From: a virus
Lineage: Duplodnaviria; Heunggongvirae; Uroviricota; Caudoviricetes
IMG/VR virus record: IMGVR_UViG_2711768013_000020
Direction: 5' to 3' (one strand)
DNA length: 35,394 nt
The notes under the pieces: model-generated
The model's input: only the letters and a program-made list of their open reading frames with translations
Databases searched by the model: none
What the model was told of the DNA's origin: nothing
Made by a program: the position numbers and the translations under genes
Shown here: one piece after another, positions 23,035 through 35,394 of the stretch
Layout of the letters: each line of letters starts with the position of its first letter
How positions within the stretch are numbered: the stretch's first letter is position 1

Positions 23035-23787
23035 CTATCTTGTCACTTTTCTCAATTGCGATTCAGCATACGCTTCTTCCTGCCAGCACTTTGTAACCAG
23101 TTTATTAATAACGTCTGCATATCCTTTGTACCACTGATAATCCGTCAGGTCCGGTACCAGTTTCTGGACATGATGCCGCGCCAGTGTGGTTGGTAAACGG
23201 CTAAACCGGTTGCCATTGCAACGCCCACAAATCTTATAAACAGGCACACCATGAAGCCGGGTTCTTTTTTCATCCAGGACAATACCTTTACCCTTACACC
23301 CTCTGCACGCTGTGCTGACTTCTCCCTTACCATGGCAATGCTGACATAGTTCCTTCACCCACTCTTCCTTGATAACAGATTCCCCGCTTCTGGAGTGTTT
23401 CACCACTTCGCGCAATACATTATGAAATCCAGTACCAGCACAATGCTCACAGCGAGCCTTACTTGCCGCAGACCTGGAATAATCAGCAAAGGCAAAATTC
23501 ACAAGGTAAGGGATGATCTGTAACCGGGTTTCTTCACTCAATTTGTTCAATGTCGGGTTATCCAGTGCCATCGCGTAATTGAGCAGACCTTCAATCGCAA
23601 ATTGAGGATCCTGAACACCAACTTTTGCCAGGAATAAGGCAAACCCAAGCGGTGCTTTCGACTGCACCATCCCCTGCGCAGCCATCACATCCGTAATCGT
23701 TAAACCACCTGAGCCTGTCGCCGGTGCGTCATCGCTCAATTTTGGAGATTTTGGGGAGTAATATTTTGGTAAGGCTTCAAGGTTCAT
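23035..23787 (-). CDS. Q: Late-gene antiterminator Q
   Basis: From ATG 23787 MNLEALPKYYSPKSPKLSDD...; zinc-binding CxxC pairs (CEHCAGTG, CGRCNG), C-terminal ...LRKVTR; lambda Q-like. Confidence 0.85.
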   Translation of the reverse strand: MNLEALPKYYSPKSPKLSDDAPATGSGGLTITDVMAAQGMVQSKAPLGFALFLAKVGVQDPQFAIEGLLNYAMALDNPTLNKLSEETRLQIIPYLVNFAFADYSRSAASKARCEHCAGTGFHNVLREVVKHSRSGESVIKEEWVKELCQHCHGKGEVSTACRGCKGKGIVLDEKRTRLHGVPVYKICGRCNGNRFSRLPTTLARHHVQKLVPDLTDYQWYKGYADVINKLVTKCWQEEAYAESQLRKVTR

Positions 23788-23800
23788 GCTCGTTCTCCAC

Positions 23801-24796
23801 TTACGCCAATACGCCAATTGCCAGCGCACGATCGATAAAACGAAATATCAGCTCCAGCTGGGAGCCATACTTCTCTTCAAATGCCACGGTATCCGCATGC
23901 AGCTCGTCGTGATGCTTTCTGCACAAAGGCAACACAAAGAGGTCATGCGCTTTTGTACCCATTCCACCCTGACCGTGGCCTATCAGGTGGTGGGGATCAT
24001 CAGCAGGCTTTCCACAACATGCACACGGCTGTGTCTTAACCCAGCGCGTGTACTTTTCATTAACCCAGCGGCGGCGTTTTGGGCGTAACATAAAAGACTC
24101 CGGCGACTCCGGATCCACTTTCAGCGCCAGCACCTTTTTTGCCTTATCCTGGATGATGCTGGTGGCAGGAACCGAAGGCACAAGGTCACTTTCCCGGGTG
24201 ACAGACGGCACAACAGGCTTTGGTAATCTCAGTGCCTTACGGGCTGCACTTTCCGGTAAGGCATCCGCCAGGTCATTACGAATCAGCCACCAGCACAGTT
24301 CCGGCATTGTCACAACGTGACTATCATCAAAACCGAGATCCCGACGCACAACAGACAACACCCAGCGGGCACAGTTATCCGTTGCCATTGATTCCAGCCG
24401 TTCCGTGAACTGATCGCGCAGCTGGTTATCGCAGTGCCAGCACAGACGGATTGCGCCCGGAGCGTGTCGCATTGTGGTCATGTTCTCGCTGTGCCAGTCG
24501 GAATGAGGCCACTGGCAGCCTTTTTCACGAAGTAACCAGCTTTCAAGACATTCCACGCCACCAGCACGACGGATCACTGCCTCATTGCGGAACACGGCCC
24601 GAACGGCAGGATCATCCGCCAGCGGTTGTGATGCCGCCGGAACGGCACCACTGGCGAAAGATGAATAACGTTCCGGCTCAGGCTCCAGCAGAACACGCCC
24701 CTGCATAAACAGGGGCATCAGCTCTGAACCTGGCCTGAACAATACGATCCCCATACGCGGGGCAATTTCAGGGGTCAGTAGTGCTCTCACGGTCAC
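23801..24796 (-). CDS. nin-region protein with C-terminal HNH-like zinc-finger motif (DUF968-like)
   Basis: 331 aa; C-terminal CACCGKPADDPHHLIGHG...CRKHHDELH. Confidence 0.5.
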   Translation of the reverse strand: MTVRALLTPEIAPRMGIVLFRPGSELMPLFMQGRVLLEPEPERYSSFASGAVPAASQPLADDPAVRAVFRNEAVIRRAGGVECLESWLLREKGCQWPHSDWHSENMTTMRHAPGAIRLCWHCDNQLRDQFTERLESMATDNCARWVLSVVRRDLGFDDSHVVTMPELCWWLIRNDLADALPESAARKALRLPKPVVPSVTRESDLVPSVPATSIIQDKAKKVLALKVDPESPESFMLRPKRRRWVNEKYTRWVKTQPCACCGKPADDPHHLIGHGQGGMGTKAHDLFVLPLCRKHHDELHADTVAFEEKYGSQLELIFRFIDRALAIGVLA

Positions 24797-28298: not shown

Positions 28299-28531
28299 GC
28301 TGCACCTCCGAGATGCTTCATGTTTTTTCCGGAGCGAAAGGCTATAAGCGGCATACTGACGCGGTAATTACGGCCCAGCGGTTCACAAATCACCTTCTGG
28401 CATTCACGGTCAACCAGGCTAACACGTAGAACATGCCCTGCAGGCGTGGTGTACCACTGCCCAACTGTAGGAATTGATATTTTTTTACGCTGAAGCAAAC
28501 GGCAAATATTGAGGATCAACGGATTAAGCAT
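28295..28531 (-). CDS. Hypothetical protein (78 aa), translationally coupled to the initiator
   Basis: ATG 28531 with RBS GGAGGG; stop overlaps the initiator start (ATGA). Confidence 0.4.
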   Translation of the reverse strand: MLNPLILNICRLLQRKKISIPTVGQWYTTPAGHVLRVSLVDRECQKVICEPLGRNYRVSMPLIAFRSGKNMKHLGGAA

Positions 28532-29360
28532 GACGATGCCCTCCGCTGATATTCAGGAGACGGTGAATATGAAAATTAGCCTTATCCGCCAGACGAATAC
28601 GTTCAGCTTGCAAGTTAAGAAGGGTTTCTACCAGAACCTGATGTGCCTGCGGATCCGAAAGAGTTACCTTGCGCAGAGCACGTAGTGCAGTTGTTACATA
28701 ACTGAGTTTATGTAAGTCTTCATCATTCAGACGAGTGAGGGCTGGGACAGTAGCCATGATGGCAGCCTCCTTGATCGGTGAAATACTTCCACCACCGGAA
28801 ACGCCAATTTCGCTGGTGGTGAACTGAACGGGGTTGGCGTAACCGGTGATCAAGGAAACCGGCGCATCTTTCGATGCCCCCGCCCAGCCCACCATAACTT
28901 TGATGTGAGCAAATGCGGACGATAAAAAAGACGCTGGCGCGTCATATATCGCCTTGATCAATTCCAGGACGCCAATCCCGGCACCCGCTTTATAAGGTGC
29001 CTGAACAGTGTAACGTCCCGGAATGGCAGAATCAATGTGCTGGTGGTCCTTCACACTCAACAAAATCACGCCTGAATTTCCACAAAGGACTAAAGCACTC
29101 ATGCGGGTAGTCTTTGCGAAGATAGATAACGCGCTGTGTTTCTGGCTCCCAACGAATAACATGAACATAAAGTCCTCTTCCGTCACGAAACCAGCGGTTA
29201 AGTTCCTGCACAACTCGCCCCCCACAGTCAGGTAAAGTTCTCTGTGGTTACTTACAGCCAGGTGATTTGGTAATCTGCATTCATGCCGTAACAACAGGTG
29301 TTCAGCGACGCTGACCACCAGCTGTTGCGACAAACGGTTATTTGCCGTTAAACTGTTCAT
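28524..29360 (-). CDS. Hypothetical protein (278 aa) between the cII analogue and the replication initiator
   Basis: ATG 29360 with RBS GGAGAAA, ATGA overlap with the upstream stop; Gly-rich segment SEIGVSGGGSISPIKEAA; no family recognised. Confidence 0.6.
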   Translation of the reverse strand: MNSLTANNRLSQQLVVSVAEHLLLRHECRLPNHLAVSNHRELYLTVGGELCRNLTAGFVTEEDFMFMLFVGSQKHSALSIFAKTTRMSALVLCGNSGVILLSVKDHQHIDSAIPGRYTVQAPYKAGAGIGVLELIKAIYDAPASFLSSAFAHIKVMVGWAGASKDAPVSLITGYANPVQFTTSEIGVSGGGSISPIKEAAIMATVPALTRLNDEDLHKLSYVTTALRALRKVTLSDPQAHQVLVETLLNLQAERIRLADKANFHIHRLLNISGGHRHA

Positions 29361-30153: not shown

Positions 30154-30242
30154 CAATATGTACCTCCGGTATACATATTACATGATTGAGATGAACCTTC
30201 AAGATACTTGTACCTTATCGGTACAAAGGTTTTAATTTCTTT
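30154..30242. promoter_or_regulatory. Right operator/promoter region (OR, PR) between cro and cI
   Basis: 19-bp palindrome TTGTACCTTATCGGTACAA at 30208-30226; second partial palindrome ATATGTACC..GGTATACATAT; minus-strand PR candidate TTGAAG - 16 nt - TAATAT. Confidence 0.6.
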
Positions 30243-30917
30243 ATGAAAACAGTCCATGACATCCGGCGGTCTAACGCCAGAAAACTGAGAGATGGTGTTG
30301 GCGGGAATTCTTCCTTTGCCACCATGATTGATCGCGAGCCAACCCAGACCAGCAGGTTTATGGGAGATGGTGCAACTAAAAATATCGGTGACAGCATGGC
30401 ACGGCACATCGAAAAATGTTTCGACCTGCCTGTCGGATGGCTTGATCAAGAACACCAGACAACGAACATCACAAAAAAACCTGACGTTTCAATCACTAAC
30501 AAACAAATAACGTTAGTCCCTGTCATATCATGGGTACAGGCCGGAGCATGGAAAGAAGTTGGCTATTCTGAGGTTGATTTGAGCACAGCAGAAACTTATC
30601 CCTGCCCTGTACCCTGTGGCGAAATGACTTATATCTTGCGGGTGATTGGTGATTCAATGATTGATGAGTACCGCCCGGGAGACATGATTTTTGTTGATCC
30701 TGAAGTCCCTGCCTGCCACGGTGACGACGTTATTGCATTGATGCACGATACAGGCGAAACCACCTTCAAGCGGTTGATAGAAGATGGAACACAGCGTTAT
30801 CTCAAAGCATTAAACCCAAACTGGCCTGAGCCTTACATTAAGATTAACGGTAATTGCTCTATAATTGGTACAGTGATTTTCTCAGGAAAACCAAGAAGAT
30901 ACATAATAAAGGCCTAA
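30243..30917 (+). CDS. cI: CI-type prophage repressor (HTH plus S24 LexA-like autopeptidase)
   Basis: 224 aa; candidate Ala-Gly cleavage site (WVQAGAW), serine motif VIGDSM and downstream lysine (ETTFKRL); no SD upstream. Confidence 0.85.
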   Translation: MKTVHDIRRSNARKLRDGVGGNSSFATMIDREPTQTSRFMGDGATKNIGDSMARHIEKCFDLPVGWLDQEHQTTNITKKPDVSITNKQITLVPVISWVQAGAWKEVGYSEVDLSTAETYPCPVPCGEMTYILRVIGDSMIDEYRPGDMIFVDPEVPACHGDDVIALMHDTGETTFKRLIEDGTQRYLKALNPNWPEPYIKINGNCSIIGTVIFSGKPRRYIIKA

Positions 30918-30930
30918 TCAATATTTATAA

Positions 30931-30951
30931 CCTGCTTCGGCAGGTTTTTTT
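30931..30951 (+). terminator. Intrinsic terminator after cI
   Basis: CCTGC-ttcg-GCAGG followed by TTTTTTT. Confidence 0.7.
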
Positions 30952-30955
30952 ATAC

Positions 30956-30984
30956 TTGACAATGTACCTTTGGGATACATAATG
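30956..30984 (+). promoter_or_regulatory. PL-like early-left promoter with overlapping operator-like dyad
   Basis: TTGACA (30956-30961) - 16 nt - CATAAT; spacer contains ATGTACCTTTGGGATACAT, related to the OR palindrome. Confidence 0.5.
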
Positions 30985-31467
30985 TATCTAAAAGAAACAC
31001 AGCACAGGCAAGATTAAACAAAATTTGGTTGTAACACGGCGTATGGCACATGCGTCGTTAGCGGTCTGGGGACGTTAAAGGGGACAATCCACTCCTTGCT
31101 CGGGCAAACAAACCAGGTAGCCGGAATGTGCAAGTCAATGATGATGCTGATAAGACGCCTAACCAGCGTGGCGATTCGGTTTGACGCCTGGGAAGAGACC
31201 AGGGTGCAACGATGAGGACATTTATGGAACCGCGACAAAGTGTGGTGCCGTAACTGGCTAAGTGCTCTCAGCGTTGTGGTGAATGCGCAGGCTGATGCGC
31301 GAAAGACATTGCAGCTAATGCGGAAAAGAGCTGTTCGGCGGGGCAATTAAACGCCCGTGAGAGTCTGAAATAACCGCAAGCCGGAGATCAGCACCGGTCA
31401 CCACAACAGCCACTGCTTTGGCGGTACCAGTTTGTACACTTGCTTCCGGCTGGTACCGCTCTTTTTA

Positions 31468-31554
31468 CAAAACAGAGAAGAGCATCACCGGACGACGGGC
31501 TCATAACCAAATCCATCCGGGCGGCTGCCACCGCAGGTGTTCTTCTCTGTTTTG
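31468..31554 (+). other. Perfect 14-bp inverted repeat (CAAAACAGAGAAGA / TCTTCTCTGTTTTG) enclosing a 59-nt structured segment in the early-left leader
   Basis: Read directly from the sequence; no U-run after the 3' arm. Confidence 0.45.
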
Positions 31555-31603
31555 TGGAGAAACCAACCGACCTTGCAGGGTCGATATGATTAGGAGCAGC
31601 AAA

Positions 31604-31966
31604 ATGGCTAGCGAACGCAGTACTGATGTGCAGGCATTTATTGGGGAGCTGGACGGCGGCGTATTTGAAACCAAAATCGGCGCAGTTCTCAGTGAAGTCG
31701 CTTCCGGTGTGATGAACACGAAAACCAAAGGTAAGGTCTCACTCAACCTGGAAATCGAACCATTTGATGAGAACCGTGTGAAAATCAAACACAAACTCTC
31801 ATATGTTCGCCCGACTAACCGCGGGAAAATTTCCGAAGAAGACACCACCGAAACGCCGATGTATGTCAATCGCGGTGGTCGCCTGACTATTCTGCAGGAA
31901 GACCAGGGACAATTACTGACTCTTGCCGGTGAACCTGACGGAAAACTCCGCGCAGCAGGTCATTAA
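31604..31966 (+). CDS. yfdP: YfdP-like prophage protein (120 aa)
   Basis: ATG 31604 with RBS AGGAG; length and adjacency to a 274-aa gene match the yfdP-yfdQ pair as I recall it from E. coli CPS-53 (not verified by alignment). Confidence 0.5.
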   Translation: MASERSTDVQAFIGELDGGVFETKIGAVLSEVASGVMNTKTKGKVSLNLEIEPFDENRVKIKHKLSYVRPTNRGKISEEDTTETPMYVNRGGRLTILQEDQGQLLTLAGEPDGKLRAAGH

Positions 31967-32031: not shown

Positions 32032-32856
32032 ATGTCTCAGAACTTAGACGCAACCGCAATTAATCAAATCCATGCCCTTATTTCTGCTCAGGGTGTTAAT
32101 GAAATTATCAGTAAGATTGGTGCCGATGCTGTGGCATTGCCTGAGAATTTCCGCATTCATGATCTGGAAAAATTAAATTTAAATCGTTTCCGTTTCCGTG
32201 GTGCGCTTTCCACTGCCAGCATCGATGACTTTACTCGTTATTCTAAAGATCTTGCAGATGAAGGCACCCGCTGCTTTATCGATGCTGATAATATGCGTGC
32301 CGTCAGTGTTCTTAACCTGGGTACTATTGATGAACCAGGTCACGCAGATAACACCGCCACTCTCAAACTGAAAAAGACAGCTCCGTTCTCTGCTCTGTTG
32401 TCTGTTAATGGCGAGCGTAACTCCCAGAAGTCACTGGCAGAATGGATTGAAGACTGGGCCGACTACCTTGTGGGCTTTGATGCTAATGGTGACGCCATTC
32501 AGGCAACCAAAGCGGCTGCGGCGATCCGTAAAATCACAATTGAAGCGAACCAGACCGCTGATTTTGAAGATAATGACTTCAGCGGCAAACGCTCCCTGAT
32601 GGAGTCTGTCGAAGCGAAGACCAAAGACATTATGCCAGTGGCATTTGAATTTAAATGCGTTCCGTTTGAAGGTCTGAAAGAACGTCCGTTTAAATTACGC
32701 CTCAGCATTATCACTGGCGATCGTCCTGTACTGGTTCTGCGCATTATTCAGCTGGAAGCGGTACAGGAAGAAATGGCTAACGAATTTCGTGATCTGCTTG
32801 TTGAGAAATTCAAAGACAGCAAAGTAGAAACCTTTATTGGTACTTTCACCGCCTGA
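32032..32856 (+). CDS. yfdQ: YfdQ-like (DUF2303-family) prophage protein (274 aa)
   Basis: ATG 32032 with RBS GAGGA; length and context as above; identity from memory, not alignment. Confidence 0.5.
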
Positions 32857-34145: not shown

Positions 34146-34174
34146 AGAAAAAACCCGCCTAAAGGCGGGTTTTC
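34144..34174. terminator. Convergent terminator shared by the plus-strand early-left genes and the minus-strand Panacea operon
   Basis: AAAAACCCGCC-taaa-GGCGGGTTTT: 7-bp GC stem with A/T runs on both sides. Confidence 0.65.
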
Positions 34175-34405: not shown

Positions 34406-34825
34406 TTACTCATCATCAATAGATGATACGCAATATTTATTTTTAAATTTAAGGTTCTTTGGCGTAACTTCATCAGATATATCAAAACCGTCCAGAATTC
34501 TATTGAATGTAGCTTCTGGCATATCATCATGAACGGAAATCTCACCCGATCGCTGCTTTCTAACCATGTTATCCACTCGCCAAATTATAGCTTCAGCGTA
34601 AACAACATAACTTGGATGCTTGATAAAGCGATGATCACCAGAATTCAAGACGCAAGACGGATCGTGGGGGACACCATCCTTGATACTAGAAATATTAACA
34701 ACTAAAACACAATAACAATCGTTAACGGGGTAATAAACAGGATCATTACAAATCACATGAAGATGATTGCATGGCCCAGTTGGGGCAAGCACAGTTCCTT
34801 TCCTGTATGGCTGATAATCCGTCAT
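34406..34825 (-). CDS. Hypothetical protein (139 aa), candidate toxin/effector partner of the Panacea-domain protein
   Basis: Start overlaps the upstream stop (ATGA); no recognised family. Confidence 0.6.
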   Translation of the reverse strand: MTDYQPYRKGTVLAPTGPCNHLHVICNDPVYYPVNDCYCVLVVNISSIKDGVPHDPSCVLNSGDHRFIKHPSYVVYAEAIIWRVDNMVRKQRSGEISVHDDMPEATFNRILDGFDISDEVTPKNLKFKNKYCVSSIDDE

Positions 34826-35394
34826 GATAATTGCAAAGAAAATTCCTTAAGTTTCTGAGATTCTTCCATTTTGCCAATTATACGATTAGCCTCATCCTCG
34901 CTTTTACCCTCACTGATCAGCATTTCTTTCAGGTCTATAGGCTTACGAGAATTGCCAGGATTGTGCCACTCTGGACAAACGCTTTCTAAATGCGTCATGT
35001 TTGCGAGATCAAATCGGTTCATATGCCCATACAGAGAATAGATTTCATCTAAAATCCGGATATCTGCACGGCTCAACTCATCAAAGACCTCGTCTGCATC
35101 CATTTCCCTCGGATCTGAACGCAACAACACATCATGCCCGTTCGTCTCTATCAGGTTGTACCAGTAGTCACCAATACCTTCAGCCTTACCACGAATCAAG
35201 TTCAGCGTATTCGACATGACTGGACCAAATTTCATAGAGTAAAGGCTATCTTCGCCGATCATCCTGCCATGCTTCAAAATCGACTTGCGGTTAGACAGAT
35301 AGAGCAGCTTCATCAATTTCAGATATGCCATGCGCCCACCTCGCTTAAGAAGTAGGTATGCAGCCATTTGAGCTACTTTTTCTTCGCAAAACAT
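34822..35394 (-). CDS. Panacea-domain (DUF4065, SocA/GepA-like) protein, candidate antitoxin; start coincides with the window edge
   Basis: MAAYLLLKRGGRMAYLKLMKLLYLSNRKSILKHGRMIGEDSLYSMKFGPVMSN matches the Panacea N-terminal signature (LKLqKLLYyaq ... GPV). Confidence 0.7.
   Translation of the reverse strand: MFCEEKVAQMAAYLLLKRGGRMAYLKLMKLLYLSNRKSILKHGRMIGEDSLYSMKFGPVMSNTLNLIRGKAEGIGDYWYNLIETNGHDVLLRSDPREMDADEVFDELSRADIRILDEIYSLYGHMNRFDLANMTHLESVCPEWHNPGNSRKPIDLKEMLISEGKSEDEANRIIGKMEESQKLKEFSLQLS

Follow-up and report, generated by a model that had tools for sequence, protein, structure and literature searches.

A conserved three-way junction RNA with an initiator tRNA-like hairpin in the early-left leader of a lambdoid prophage

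Introduction

The put elements of phages HK022 and HK639 are cis-encoded structured RNAs found in the early-left (PL) leaders of lambdoid phages that have no N gene, and they are independent of the genes downstream. They are about 70 nt in length, form a V shape of two stems with the blocks AAACCAUGCGUCGG and GGCAAU, and are expected upstream of the terminators that they suppress; their read-through activity works in cis and requires the beta' zinc-binding domain, and HK022 has a second copy in its early-right (PR) operon. The RNA described here shares this general setting. It is a three-way junction (3WJ) of about 90 nt in the PL leader of the lambdoid prophage IMGVR_UViG_2711768013_000020, a stretch of 35,394 nt that was analysed in full and is termed the window. 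Unlike put, the 3WJ has a 20-bp basal stem, sits after a terminator-like hairpin, has relatives in late leaders controlled by Q and is not repeated in the PR operon of the window. Judged from sequence, it is not a member of the put family.

Other described systems resemble parts of this leader. The RNase III sites of the lambda N leader and of the T7 early region consist of a long duplex placed between a leader and the first ribosome-binding site; the 3WJ duplex differs in that it carries a junction with an invariant tRNA-like arm, and its cleavage is only putative. The Escherichia coli thrS operator has a leader hairpin that mimics the anticodon arm of tRNAThr, much as the 3WJ consensus copies the arm of tRNAfMet, but that operator controls the synthetase of its own tRNA, whereas the 3WJ precedes unrelated phage genes and some of its copies are found away from open reading frames (ORFs). 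The dicF region of the Qin dicB operon and the leader of the phage P1 ban operon are also long non-coding stretches in repressor-controlled early operons, with small RNA (sRNA)- or tRNA-like modules. The modules of the window are not DicF, but the ban operon shares with the window leader homologues of the 3WJ and of two further modules, termed A and B. STnc100 and PasD are Hfq-associated sRNAs of prophages, found near tRNA, Q and lysis regions, whose function is undescribed (bioRxiv 10.64898/2026.05.13.724894).

The problem of early expression without N has been raised for phage LLS. A 2025 survey of lambdoid phages (PMC12315714) points out that LLS has no N, relates its early-left operon to the operons of ST64B and phiNP, and states that it 'may have' antitermination of the put kind. 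The 3WJ is a conserved, previously undescribed RNA, with conceptual relatives among early-operon leader RNAs, thrS-type mimics and processed sRNAs.

Structure and conservation of the three-way junction

An earlier note on this DNA, made from the letters alone, drew attention to a perfect 14-bp inverted repeat in the leader (31468-31481/31541-31554). The repeat is present as described, and it extends to 25 nt at 84% complementarity (31467-31491/31531-31555); by our own calculation such a repeat is expected by chance about 2e-4 times per 650 nt. The 114-nt segment around it folds with -49.8 kcal/mol (z = -6.3), and 0 of 200 shuffles were as stable. The repeat is part of the basal stem, P1, of the following structure.

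31467..31555, + strand: the 3WJ RNA (alignment A2, covariation, folds, covariance model R1)
31467-31486/31536-31555, + strand: stem P1, 20 bp, which contains the inverted repeat (covariation)
31488-31520, + strand: arm P2, an interrupted helix with the apical hairpin GGGCUCAUAACCA at 31497-31509 (alignment)
31521-31534, + strand: arm P3, a hairpin of variable length (alignment)

Homologous loci were collected by two routes, from contigs with YfdP homologues (bacterial, one genome per species, and viral) and with an exact 19-mer from the 3WJ. Alignment A2 contains 53 non-redundant copies from more than 10 genera, and 95.5% of its cells form standard pairs in the proposed structure. Double compensatory changes are seen at 13 pairs, as against one to six in slid controls; the covariation score is 0.213, compared with 0.02-0.08 in the controls, and no shuffle reaches any of the pairing statistics. 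The earlier note had named lack of conservation of the repeat in homologous leaders as the finding that would speak against its proposal; the repeat is conserved, with compensatory changes, in leaders across many genera. The 20 pairs of P1 are formed in 95% of cells, and the minimum free energy (MFE) fold extends the stem to 25 pairs. Pair 22-117 within it is non-canonical in 34 of the 53 sequences, and is thus a conserved internal mismatch in many homologues. Covariance model R1 scores the window copy at 123.8 bits.

RNAalifold agrees with the proposed structure in P1, in P3 and at the base of P2 (33-35/63-66), whereas it gives upper P2 other pairs (39-58, 40-57, 43-54 and 44-53). The single-sequence MFE fold is likewise this three-way junction, except that its apical P2 hairpin is slightly shifted in register. 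The exact pairing of upper P2 is not settled by covariation, because this stretch is invariant. Two proposals for P3 were rejected: pairing of its loop with the hairpin before the Shine-Dalgarno (SD) sequence (UUGCAG/CUGCCA) shows no consistent covariation, and a reading as a second anticodon-like loop fits some variants only (CUUCCUAA, CUGGUAA).

Two small features separate the 3WJ from the ribosome-binding site of the first gene.

31556..31567, + strand: single-stranded, SD-like tail GGAGAAAC(C/U)AAC, kept in all copies of the PL type described below
31568..31583, + strand: small hairpin CGACC-UUGCAG-GGUCG, just before the ribosome-binding site (fold)

The tail can pair with a U-tract upstream of the 3WJ, and both RNAalifold and the MFE fold lengthen P1 through U-tract:GGAGA pairs. 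Its core, GGAGAAACUAAC, is nevertheless conserved even in PL-type copies that have no upstream U-tract, and the recombination joints to different first genes fall just 3′ of the tail. A 1-nt deletion and a 2-nt insertion in the tail keep its nucleotides and not the reading frame, and P3 lengths differ by non-multiples of 3 across copies. As both kinds of change break the reading frame, the 3WJ is an RNA element and is not protein-coding. A conserved upstream ORF starting from GUG or AUG before GAGAAA was also considered; it has from 3 to 46 codons or is fused to the downstream gene, and the 1-nt deletion, which keeps CUAAC, shifts its frame, which further rules out its conservation. The window has a mini-ORF of 11 codons from GUG at 31554 to UGA at 31587-31589, with an AUGA overlap with the ATG at 31586 that is in frame upstream of the start of the yfdP-like first gene; the length and frame of the mini-ORF vary across homologues. 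The small hairpin is present with different stems in homologues, and its z-score is not significant.

The 3WJ, module A and the module B of the window lie outside every Rfam family. In the literature on yfdP leaders, on tRNA-mimic prophage RNAs and on SfV termination, nothing was found that describes these RNA modules.

The tip of P2 and the initiator tRNA

The 21-nt consensus of the 3WJ family, GACGGGCUCAUAACCCAAUCC, contains the hairpin GGGCUCAUAACCC, and the E. coli initiator tRNA reads GUCGGGCUCAUAACCCGAAG. The hairpin agrees with the anticodon stem-loop of metY/metZWV at 13 of 13 positions, or at 15 of 17 when the flanks are included, and the match spans the 7-nt loop and three G-C pairs. 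Three G-C pairs in the anticodon stem are the feature that distinguishes initiator tRNA. The initiator tRNA sequence was itself checked: it has a 100% match in all 5426 genomes, at a median of four places in each, and metY is annotated as 'tRNA-initiator Met(CAU)'. The tip GGGCUCAUAACCC is invariant in A2, and it recurs on other scaffolds (L116, L128, L147 and phage P1, described below). The two tRNAfMet base pairs below GGG/CCC are replaced in the 3WJ by conserved mismatches.

The window copy carries a C to A change at 31509, which gives GGGCUCAUAACCA, breaks one G-C pair and leaves 12 of 13 positions matching the tRNA. Among the copies fetched this change is unique to the window, as all others have CCC there; four (L012, L016, L026 and L092) vary on the 5′ GGG side of the hairpin instead. 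Perhaps the change is a rare substitution, or it may be a sign of decay in this prophage.

The likeness is confined to the arm. As a whole, the 3WJ is not tRNA-like according to ARAGORN and the Rfam tRNA model. Homology to the metY-rimP-nusA leader was rejected, as the match is limited to the 13-nt anticodon arm. Pairing of the anticodon loop with the start-codon region of the first gene was rejected as well; the AUGAG needed is present for some first genes and absent in others, including that of the window.

Distribution and genomic contexts

The 3WJ is a portable element. PL-type copies follow cI-type repressors of many different immunity types at a distance of 130-1175 nt, with the first start codon a further 40-110 nt on, and they precede unrelated first genes (yfdP-like, RdgC-like, HD-phosphatase-like and Xis-like). 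Phage LLS matches the P2 region at 88.7%. In the window there is a single copy even with all filters off.

Copies with a short P1, termed late-type, were found by covariance model R1 and a second exact-pattern scan. Their order is Q-like gene, strong terminator, spacer of ~5-60 nt, 3WJ and holins of at least four types (L197 12006-12060; L116 104-187; L128 1928-2014; L241-L250). Phage L197 carries both the PL-type and the late-type 3WJ. The window's own late leader consists of a plain PR′ followed by a terminator.

A third context is the ban operon of phage P1 (L238, NC_005856), where R1 has matches of 40.8 bits at 2006-2084 and 33.7 bits at 1717-1839. The operon has the order Pban/Op72, dicF-like region, tRNA-Asn, tRNA-Thr, modules, tciABC, tRNA-Ile2, module A and ban. 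The 3WJ matches lie under the antisense-annotated ORFs plp and upl (L238 1473-2042), in tandem 3WJ-like and B-like modules. The ORFs drawn over such modules in several phage records, which include hypothetical proteins of mEp460 and Ayreon as well as plp and upl, are probably not genes. In a P1-like array (L003 3944-4012) the tip of one module is a T-arm-like GAGGGUUCGAAUCCCUA, which replaces the anticodon-like hairpin; the sequences suggest that modules of these arrays mimic or derive from different parts of tRNA.

Finally, the GC-rich viral contig L147 (10407-10510) has an identical GACGGGCUCAUAACCCAAUCC as a plain hairpin; it is flanked by the stop of an ORF and, 230 nt away, by a tRNA-Gln gene. 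Since this contig carries the identical 21 nt, the motif, as a sequence, extends beyond the enterobacterial scaffolds.

The leader upstream of the junction

Downstream of a cI-repressed PL, the leader consists of successive non-coding RNA modules; the order is module A, module B, linker, terminator-like hairpin, 3WJ, tail, small hairpin, ribosome-binding site and first gene. The features other than those already given are listed below.

30929..30952, + strand: intrinsic terminator after cI, with hairpin AACCTGCTTCGGCAGGTT (30929-30946) and a T-run (terminator scan)
30956..30983, + strand: PL promoter TTGACA-16-CATAAT, which matches 11 of 12 consensus positions
30963-30979, + strand: cI operator-like dyad TGTACCTTTGGGATACA, within the PL spacer
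31031..31222, + strand: module A, a conserved structured RNA (blastn matches, compensatory hairpin)
31273..31407, + strand: module B, an sRNA-like domain with the 10-bp closing stem GUUGUGGUGA/UCACCACAAC (inverted repeat)
31408..31420, + strand: single-stranded linker, a possible sRNA seed, AGCCACUGCUU here and GCUGUGUGUAGUC in most homologues
31421..31466, + strand: terminator-like hairpin GCGGUACCAG, 19-nt loop, CUGGUACCGC and U-tract UCUUUUU (fold, covariation)
31592-31596, + strand: Shine-Dalgarno sequence AGGAG before the yfdP-like gene
31604 (ATG) to 31964-31966 (stop), + strand: yfdP-like first gene (ORF list; phrog_204; yfdP in the RefSeq E. coli annotation)

The hairpin at 31421-31466 is the immediate neighbour of the 3WJ. 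It folds with -21.2 kcal/mol (z = -4.3), its stem covaries across genera (GGCGGCGUC/GGCGCCGC, GGUGGCGAC/GUAGCCACC and others), and a hairpin of this kind (median free energy -23.8 kcal/mol), with at least four U after it, directly adjoins the 3WJ on its 5′ side in 82 of 88 unique flanks. The earlier note had seen parts of it in another light. A dyad, GGTACCAG/CTGGTACC, was placed at 31427-31457; it exists, but the coordinates were slightly off, and it was found as GCGGTACCAG/CTGGTACCGC at 31421-31430/31450-31459. A boxA-like sequence, CGCTCTTTTT, was placed at 31457-31466, where the letters are indeed present, but they form the 3′ arm of the hairpin with its U-tract and are unconserved, homologues reading CCGCCCTTTTT, CGCACTTTTTT or CGCAATTTTTT at that position. 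A nut site is absent from the leader: there is no conserved boxA (CGCUCUUA-like) with a boxB hairpin, and CGCTCTTTTT varies among homologues.

Several other candidate signals in this region were rejected. A boxA-core-like UGCUCUU(C/U), as in rrn boxA, is present in the 3′ arm of stem P1 of most homologues; these bases are paired and covary (pairs 26-113 and 27-112), which makes a free NusB/E site unlikely. With respect to RfaH ops/JUMPstart elements (GGCGGTAGnnTG), GGCGGTACCAGT is ops-like over its first 7 nt only, and homologues vary there (GGCGGCGTC, AGCGGCACC, GGTGGCGAC) and covary as a hairpin stem; the ops likeness of GGCGGTACCAG was likewise dismissed. Two attenuator pairings, one of 31447-31463 with 31478-31494 and the other of an upstream UGUGUGU with the ACACACA of stem P1, are not kept in homologues.

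Module B, the linker and the hairpin together (31273-31466) have the architecture of STnc100 and PasD, i.e. a closing stem (UGGUGAAU...CACCA in the known RNAs, GUUGUGGUGAAU...CACCACAAC here), internal hairpins, a single-stranded linker, and a Rho-independent terminator, here the hairpin with UCUUUUU. The SfV counterpart of this unit (module B to the U-tract of the hairpin) aligns along the full length of the STnc100 model RF02076 at 39.5 bits, its hairpin aligning with the terminator part of the model, and a P1-like module scores 39.2 bits; both are below the gathering threshold of 47 bits. The window copy, for which 251 nt of the module B region were searched, has no RF02076 match at E <= 10. 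Because the window copy is scoreless and SfV falls below gathering, 31273-31466 is best called STnc100-like in architecture and, on these scores, not a family member. It should be pointed out that the inverted repeat of the 3WJ is downstream of the terminator of this sRNA-like unit and outside it.

A copy of module B after tRNA-Thr in a P1-like plasmid is 98% identical and shows a compensatory GUGAUGA/UCAUCAC; diverged tandem copies follow it. The linker varies among phages, and it corresponds to the unpaired linker of the STnc100 model. Two hairpin loops of module B (31285-31296 and 31385-31397) are complementary (GCUGAU/AUCAGC) in every B1-type copy seen, and they are invariant. Their sequences suggest a kissing interaction between the two loops.

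Module A is found again in the leaders of Phytobacter and Kosakonia prophages and, in P1 and P1-like plasmids, in the interval from tRNA-Ile2 to ban; copies are at ~3010-3200 in P1 (L238), 5636-5820 in L003, 2128-2277 in L019 and 2143-2293 in L021. It contains the invariant blocks GGUAGCCGGAAUGUGCAAG and CACCAUCGUGGCGAUUCGGUGUGAC, and the stem of its hairpin, which has the loop GGAAGAG, covaries (CCUGG/CCAGG, GCCGG/CCGGC and CCUCG/CGAGG). Module A alone gives no thermodynamic signal (z = 0.17), and no Rfam family matches it.

The promoter overlapping an operator-like dyad downstream of a cI terminator, as described in the earlier note, was confirmed in all three parts. The terminator is kept in Ayreon and SfV, where it is annotated as such. 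The dyad TGTACCTTTGGGATACA is one mismatch away from TGTACC-N5-GGTACA, of which a perfect example, TGTACCTTATCGGTACA, is found at 30209-30225 between cI and cro. Sites with this pattern are confined to the right operator region (OR; 30159-30175 and 30209-30225), PL and a two-mismatch match at 2390-2406, far from the immunity region. Since the spacer dyad nearly matches the perfect operator, PL is, as read from these sequences, a repressor-controlled promoter.

The whole 615-nt leader is more stable than shuffles on the + strand (z = -3.5), where it is purine- and G-rich (GC skew +0.15 to +0.22); both properties suit a structured, Rho-poor transcript from this strand. The leader is modular and mosaic, as its sub-blocks gave separate BLAST matches in phages and in E. 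coli genomes. Some part of it is present in 2663 of 5426 complete E. coli genomes, and parts are also found on P1-like plasmids of ~95 kb. Rfam has no match to the leader at gathering or at E <= 10, its only matches in the window being C4 and isrK, elsewhere. ARAGORN detects no tRNA in the window, and RF00005 has no match in the leader at E <= 10.

Gene order and the absence of N

In the window, a cI-type repressor gene (30243-30917, +) precedes the leader, and the + strand continues with the yfdP-like gene (31604-31966), a yfdQ-like gene (32032-32856; phrog_210), a low-GC ORF and an excisionase gene. The - strand has cro, CII-like and O-like replication genes, a Q-like antiterminator gene (23038-23829), and lysis and morphogenesis genes. 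The yfdP-like gene is first in the operon; its ATG is at 31604, not 31605.

No N-type antitermination gene was seen when the DNA was first read, and both the ORF list and a comparison with PHROGs agree: N family proteins are not found among the left-operon or immunity-region ORFs of the window. A lambda-type N/nut arrangement would have an arginine-rich N-like gene first in the PL operon; there is none, and the leader ORFs are of <=49 aa and none is N-like. N is also missing in relatives of the window phage. The description of the leader as ~620 nt without a credible ORF holds too, the + strand between 30990 and 31604 having no ORF of >49 aa except a 5′ extension in the yfdP frame. No strong intrinsic terminator is predicted on the + strand of the window between yfdP and xis.

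Other features of the window may be mentioned. The early-right operon has a C4 antisense RNA (28812-28899, -; RF01695, 82.3 bits) and an isrK RNA (28924-29000, -; RF01394, 64.2 bits), both within a 278-aa ORF (28524-29360); its counterparts in SfV and Ayreon carry the annotation 'immunity region', and this ORF call may be partly spurious. SfV has a weak c4-a1b1 target match as well, and an RNA-mediated transcription-termination immunity system has reportedly been published for the same region of SfV. Between yfdQ and xis, the segment 32900-33860 has a GC content of only 0.27-0.34, promoter-like sites and a 277-aa ORF (phrog_14996), and it looks like a moron acquired inside the left operon. A strong bidirectional terminator-like hairpin is found directly after xis (34149-34174), and beyond it are two convergent genes, phrog_19071 and phrog_1281 (34406-35394, -).

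Possible functions

The function of the 3WJ has to be inferred from its anatomy, covariation, portability, adjacency to a terminator and tRNAfMet-like hairpin. Our tentative reading, which we consider possible and short of probable, is that of a post-transcriptional, cis-acting leader element at the boundary of an sRNA leader and a message, in early-left as well as late operons. Part of the transcription from PL would stop at the terminator hairpin and yield an Hfq-type sRNA, and read-through transcripts would carry the 3WJ at the leader/message boundary, where it would act in cis, after transcription. The long duplex beside a U-rich linker may be a processing point for RNase III or RNase E; a cut there would part the two RNAs, sRNA and mRNA, and the mRNA would keep a very stable stem at its 5′ end. 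The tRNA-like hairpin and the SD-like tail might then bind a host factor that recognizes the anticodon arm of tRNAfMet, likeliest the 30S subunit or initiation machinery, and such binding would help ribosomes to load on whichever gene comes first. The 3WJ would thus be a portable 'start of the translated operon' module and not a device that carries RNA polymerase past terminators.

Several observations weigh against this reading. Late-type copies have a P1 of 6-7 bp and no GGAG tail, so neither the long duplex nor the tail can be a functional core shared by all copies; the tRNA-like hairpin is the sole feature universal to all 3WJ variants. Copies in the P1 ban-operon array and in L147 do not adjoin an ORF, and for these a stand-alone RNA fits better than a cis-acting translation element. 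Furthermore, the loop CUCAUAA gives way to CUCAUUC in some genera and to UUCAUAU or GUCAUAU in P1-type copies, and the window copy is short of one G-C pair; strict mimicry of tRNAfMet is therefore not kept everywhere.

Because only the tRNA-like hairpin is universal and the P1-array copies lie off ORFs, a tRNA-mimic decoy stays in play as the main rival, and we regard it as unlikely but deserving of attention. The 3WJ would be excised from early and late leaders as a putative stable small RNA whose anticodon arm acts in trans, either as a decoy for, or an inhibitor of, a factor that attacks the tRNAfMet anticodon loop, or by competing for the ribosomal P site. One example of such a factor would be the PIN toxins of VapC/MvpT type in enteric bacteria, for which cleavage of tRNAfMet in the anticodon loop has been reported. 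The RNA would occupy genomic slots that in other phages hold real tRNA genes. Consistent with a decoy, only the GACGGGCUCAUAACCCAAUCC at the helix tip is common to the PL-type, late-type, P1-type and L147 variants, the copies in P1 and P1-like plasmids are interleaved with the tRNA-Asn, tRNA-Thr and tRNA-Ile2 genes of the ban operon, and that of L147 has its tRNA-Gln gene nearby. The P1-like module with a T-arm-like tip points the same way, and excision by RNase III could take place at the long P1. Yet the PL-type and late-type copies always lie just upstream of the first ORF, and the PL type keeps its SD-like tail, which argues for a role in cis; the loop variants CUCAUUC and UUCAUAU alter positions 37-38, and the conserved mismatches below GGG/CCC do not follow the tRNA. 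An RNase III site and a riboregulator, the further suggestions of the earlier note, both leave the invariant tRNA-like hairpin unexplained. RNase III might also account for the 3WJ on its own, P1 being a processing or retroregulation site and the remaining structure incidental. The 20-bp duplex, 25 bp with the U-tract:GGAGA pairs, is of the near-continuous length of ~20 bp looked for in such sites, the conserved internal mismatch (pair 22-117) recalls T7 sites, and the position is like that of the RNase III site of the lambda N leader, which lies between the leader and the first SD. Such sites are not normally so conserved in sequence, however, and the invariance of the P2 tip and its recurrence on P1 scaffolds of 6-7 bp are left unexplained; this account seems to us no less improbable than the one considered next.

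The earlier note had suggested a put-like RNA. The location in an N-less PL leader stands, whereas homology to put, a position upstream of a terminator and a copy in the PR operon do not. In a processive antiterminator of this kind, the nascent 3WJ would bind RNA polymerase, make it resist terminators and Rho, and so replace N. The window phage and its relatives do lack N, as does LLS with its early-left operon related to that of ST64B and phiNP (PMC12315714); the 3WJ is in the PL leader whatever gene follows; in L187 it starts ~25 nt after a promoter-like sequence, as putL does; and invariant loops suit the binding of a conserved host machine. On the other hand, there is no similarity in sequence or structure to putL/putR of HK022 (taken from the genome record) or putL of HK639 (from the GenBank misc_feature), which are mutually alignable. 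A profile of these three (nhmmer --max) found nothing in the window, the best hit being 1.7 bits, and R1 found nothing in HK022 or HK639. An octamer, CGGGCUCA, is shared with HK639 putL, where it belongs to a different hairpin (GCUC/GAGC), and was treated as chance. The PR operon of the window has no second copy, and no strong terminator is predicted on the + strand between yfdP and xis. Above all, the reading is disfavoured because a terminator precedes the 3WJ, out of its reach, in those 82 of 88 unique flanks, and because the late-type relatives belong to operons already supplied with Q, in which they come after the late terminator. A put-like antiterminator is accordingly judged improbable.

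Implications

A large group of lambda-like phages has neither N nor a recognizable put, including SfV, SfII, SfIV, ST64B, mEp460, cdtI, several Stx2 phages and LLS, and how N-less early operons are expressed was stated as a question in the literature as late as 2025. The 3WJ is the one constant element of the early-left leaders of this group, with a structure backed by covariation and unrelated to put. An exact initiator-tRNA hairpin was unexpected here, as was its recurrence both in late leaders under Q control and amid the tRNA genes of P1.

It is a distinctly unlikely, although far-reaching, proposition that the 3WJ is a phage mimic of the initiator-tRNA anticodon arm, acting via the initiation machinery or against factors that attack tRNAfMet. 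If it were true, docking at the 30S P site might load ribosomes at once on the long, untranslated leader and give translation-coupled protection from Rho, which would replace N with no modification of RNA polymerase; alternatively, the arm would be a decoy for VapC/MvpT-type nucleases that cleave the tRNAfMet anticodon. Together, the exact hairpin and its recurrence suggest that phage leaders hold a class of tRNA-arm mimics not represented in Rfam, and if the mimicry of tRNAfMet is functional, the novelty would be considerably greater.

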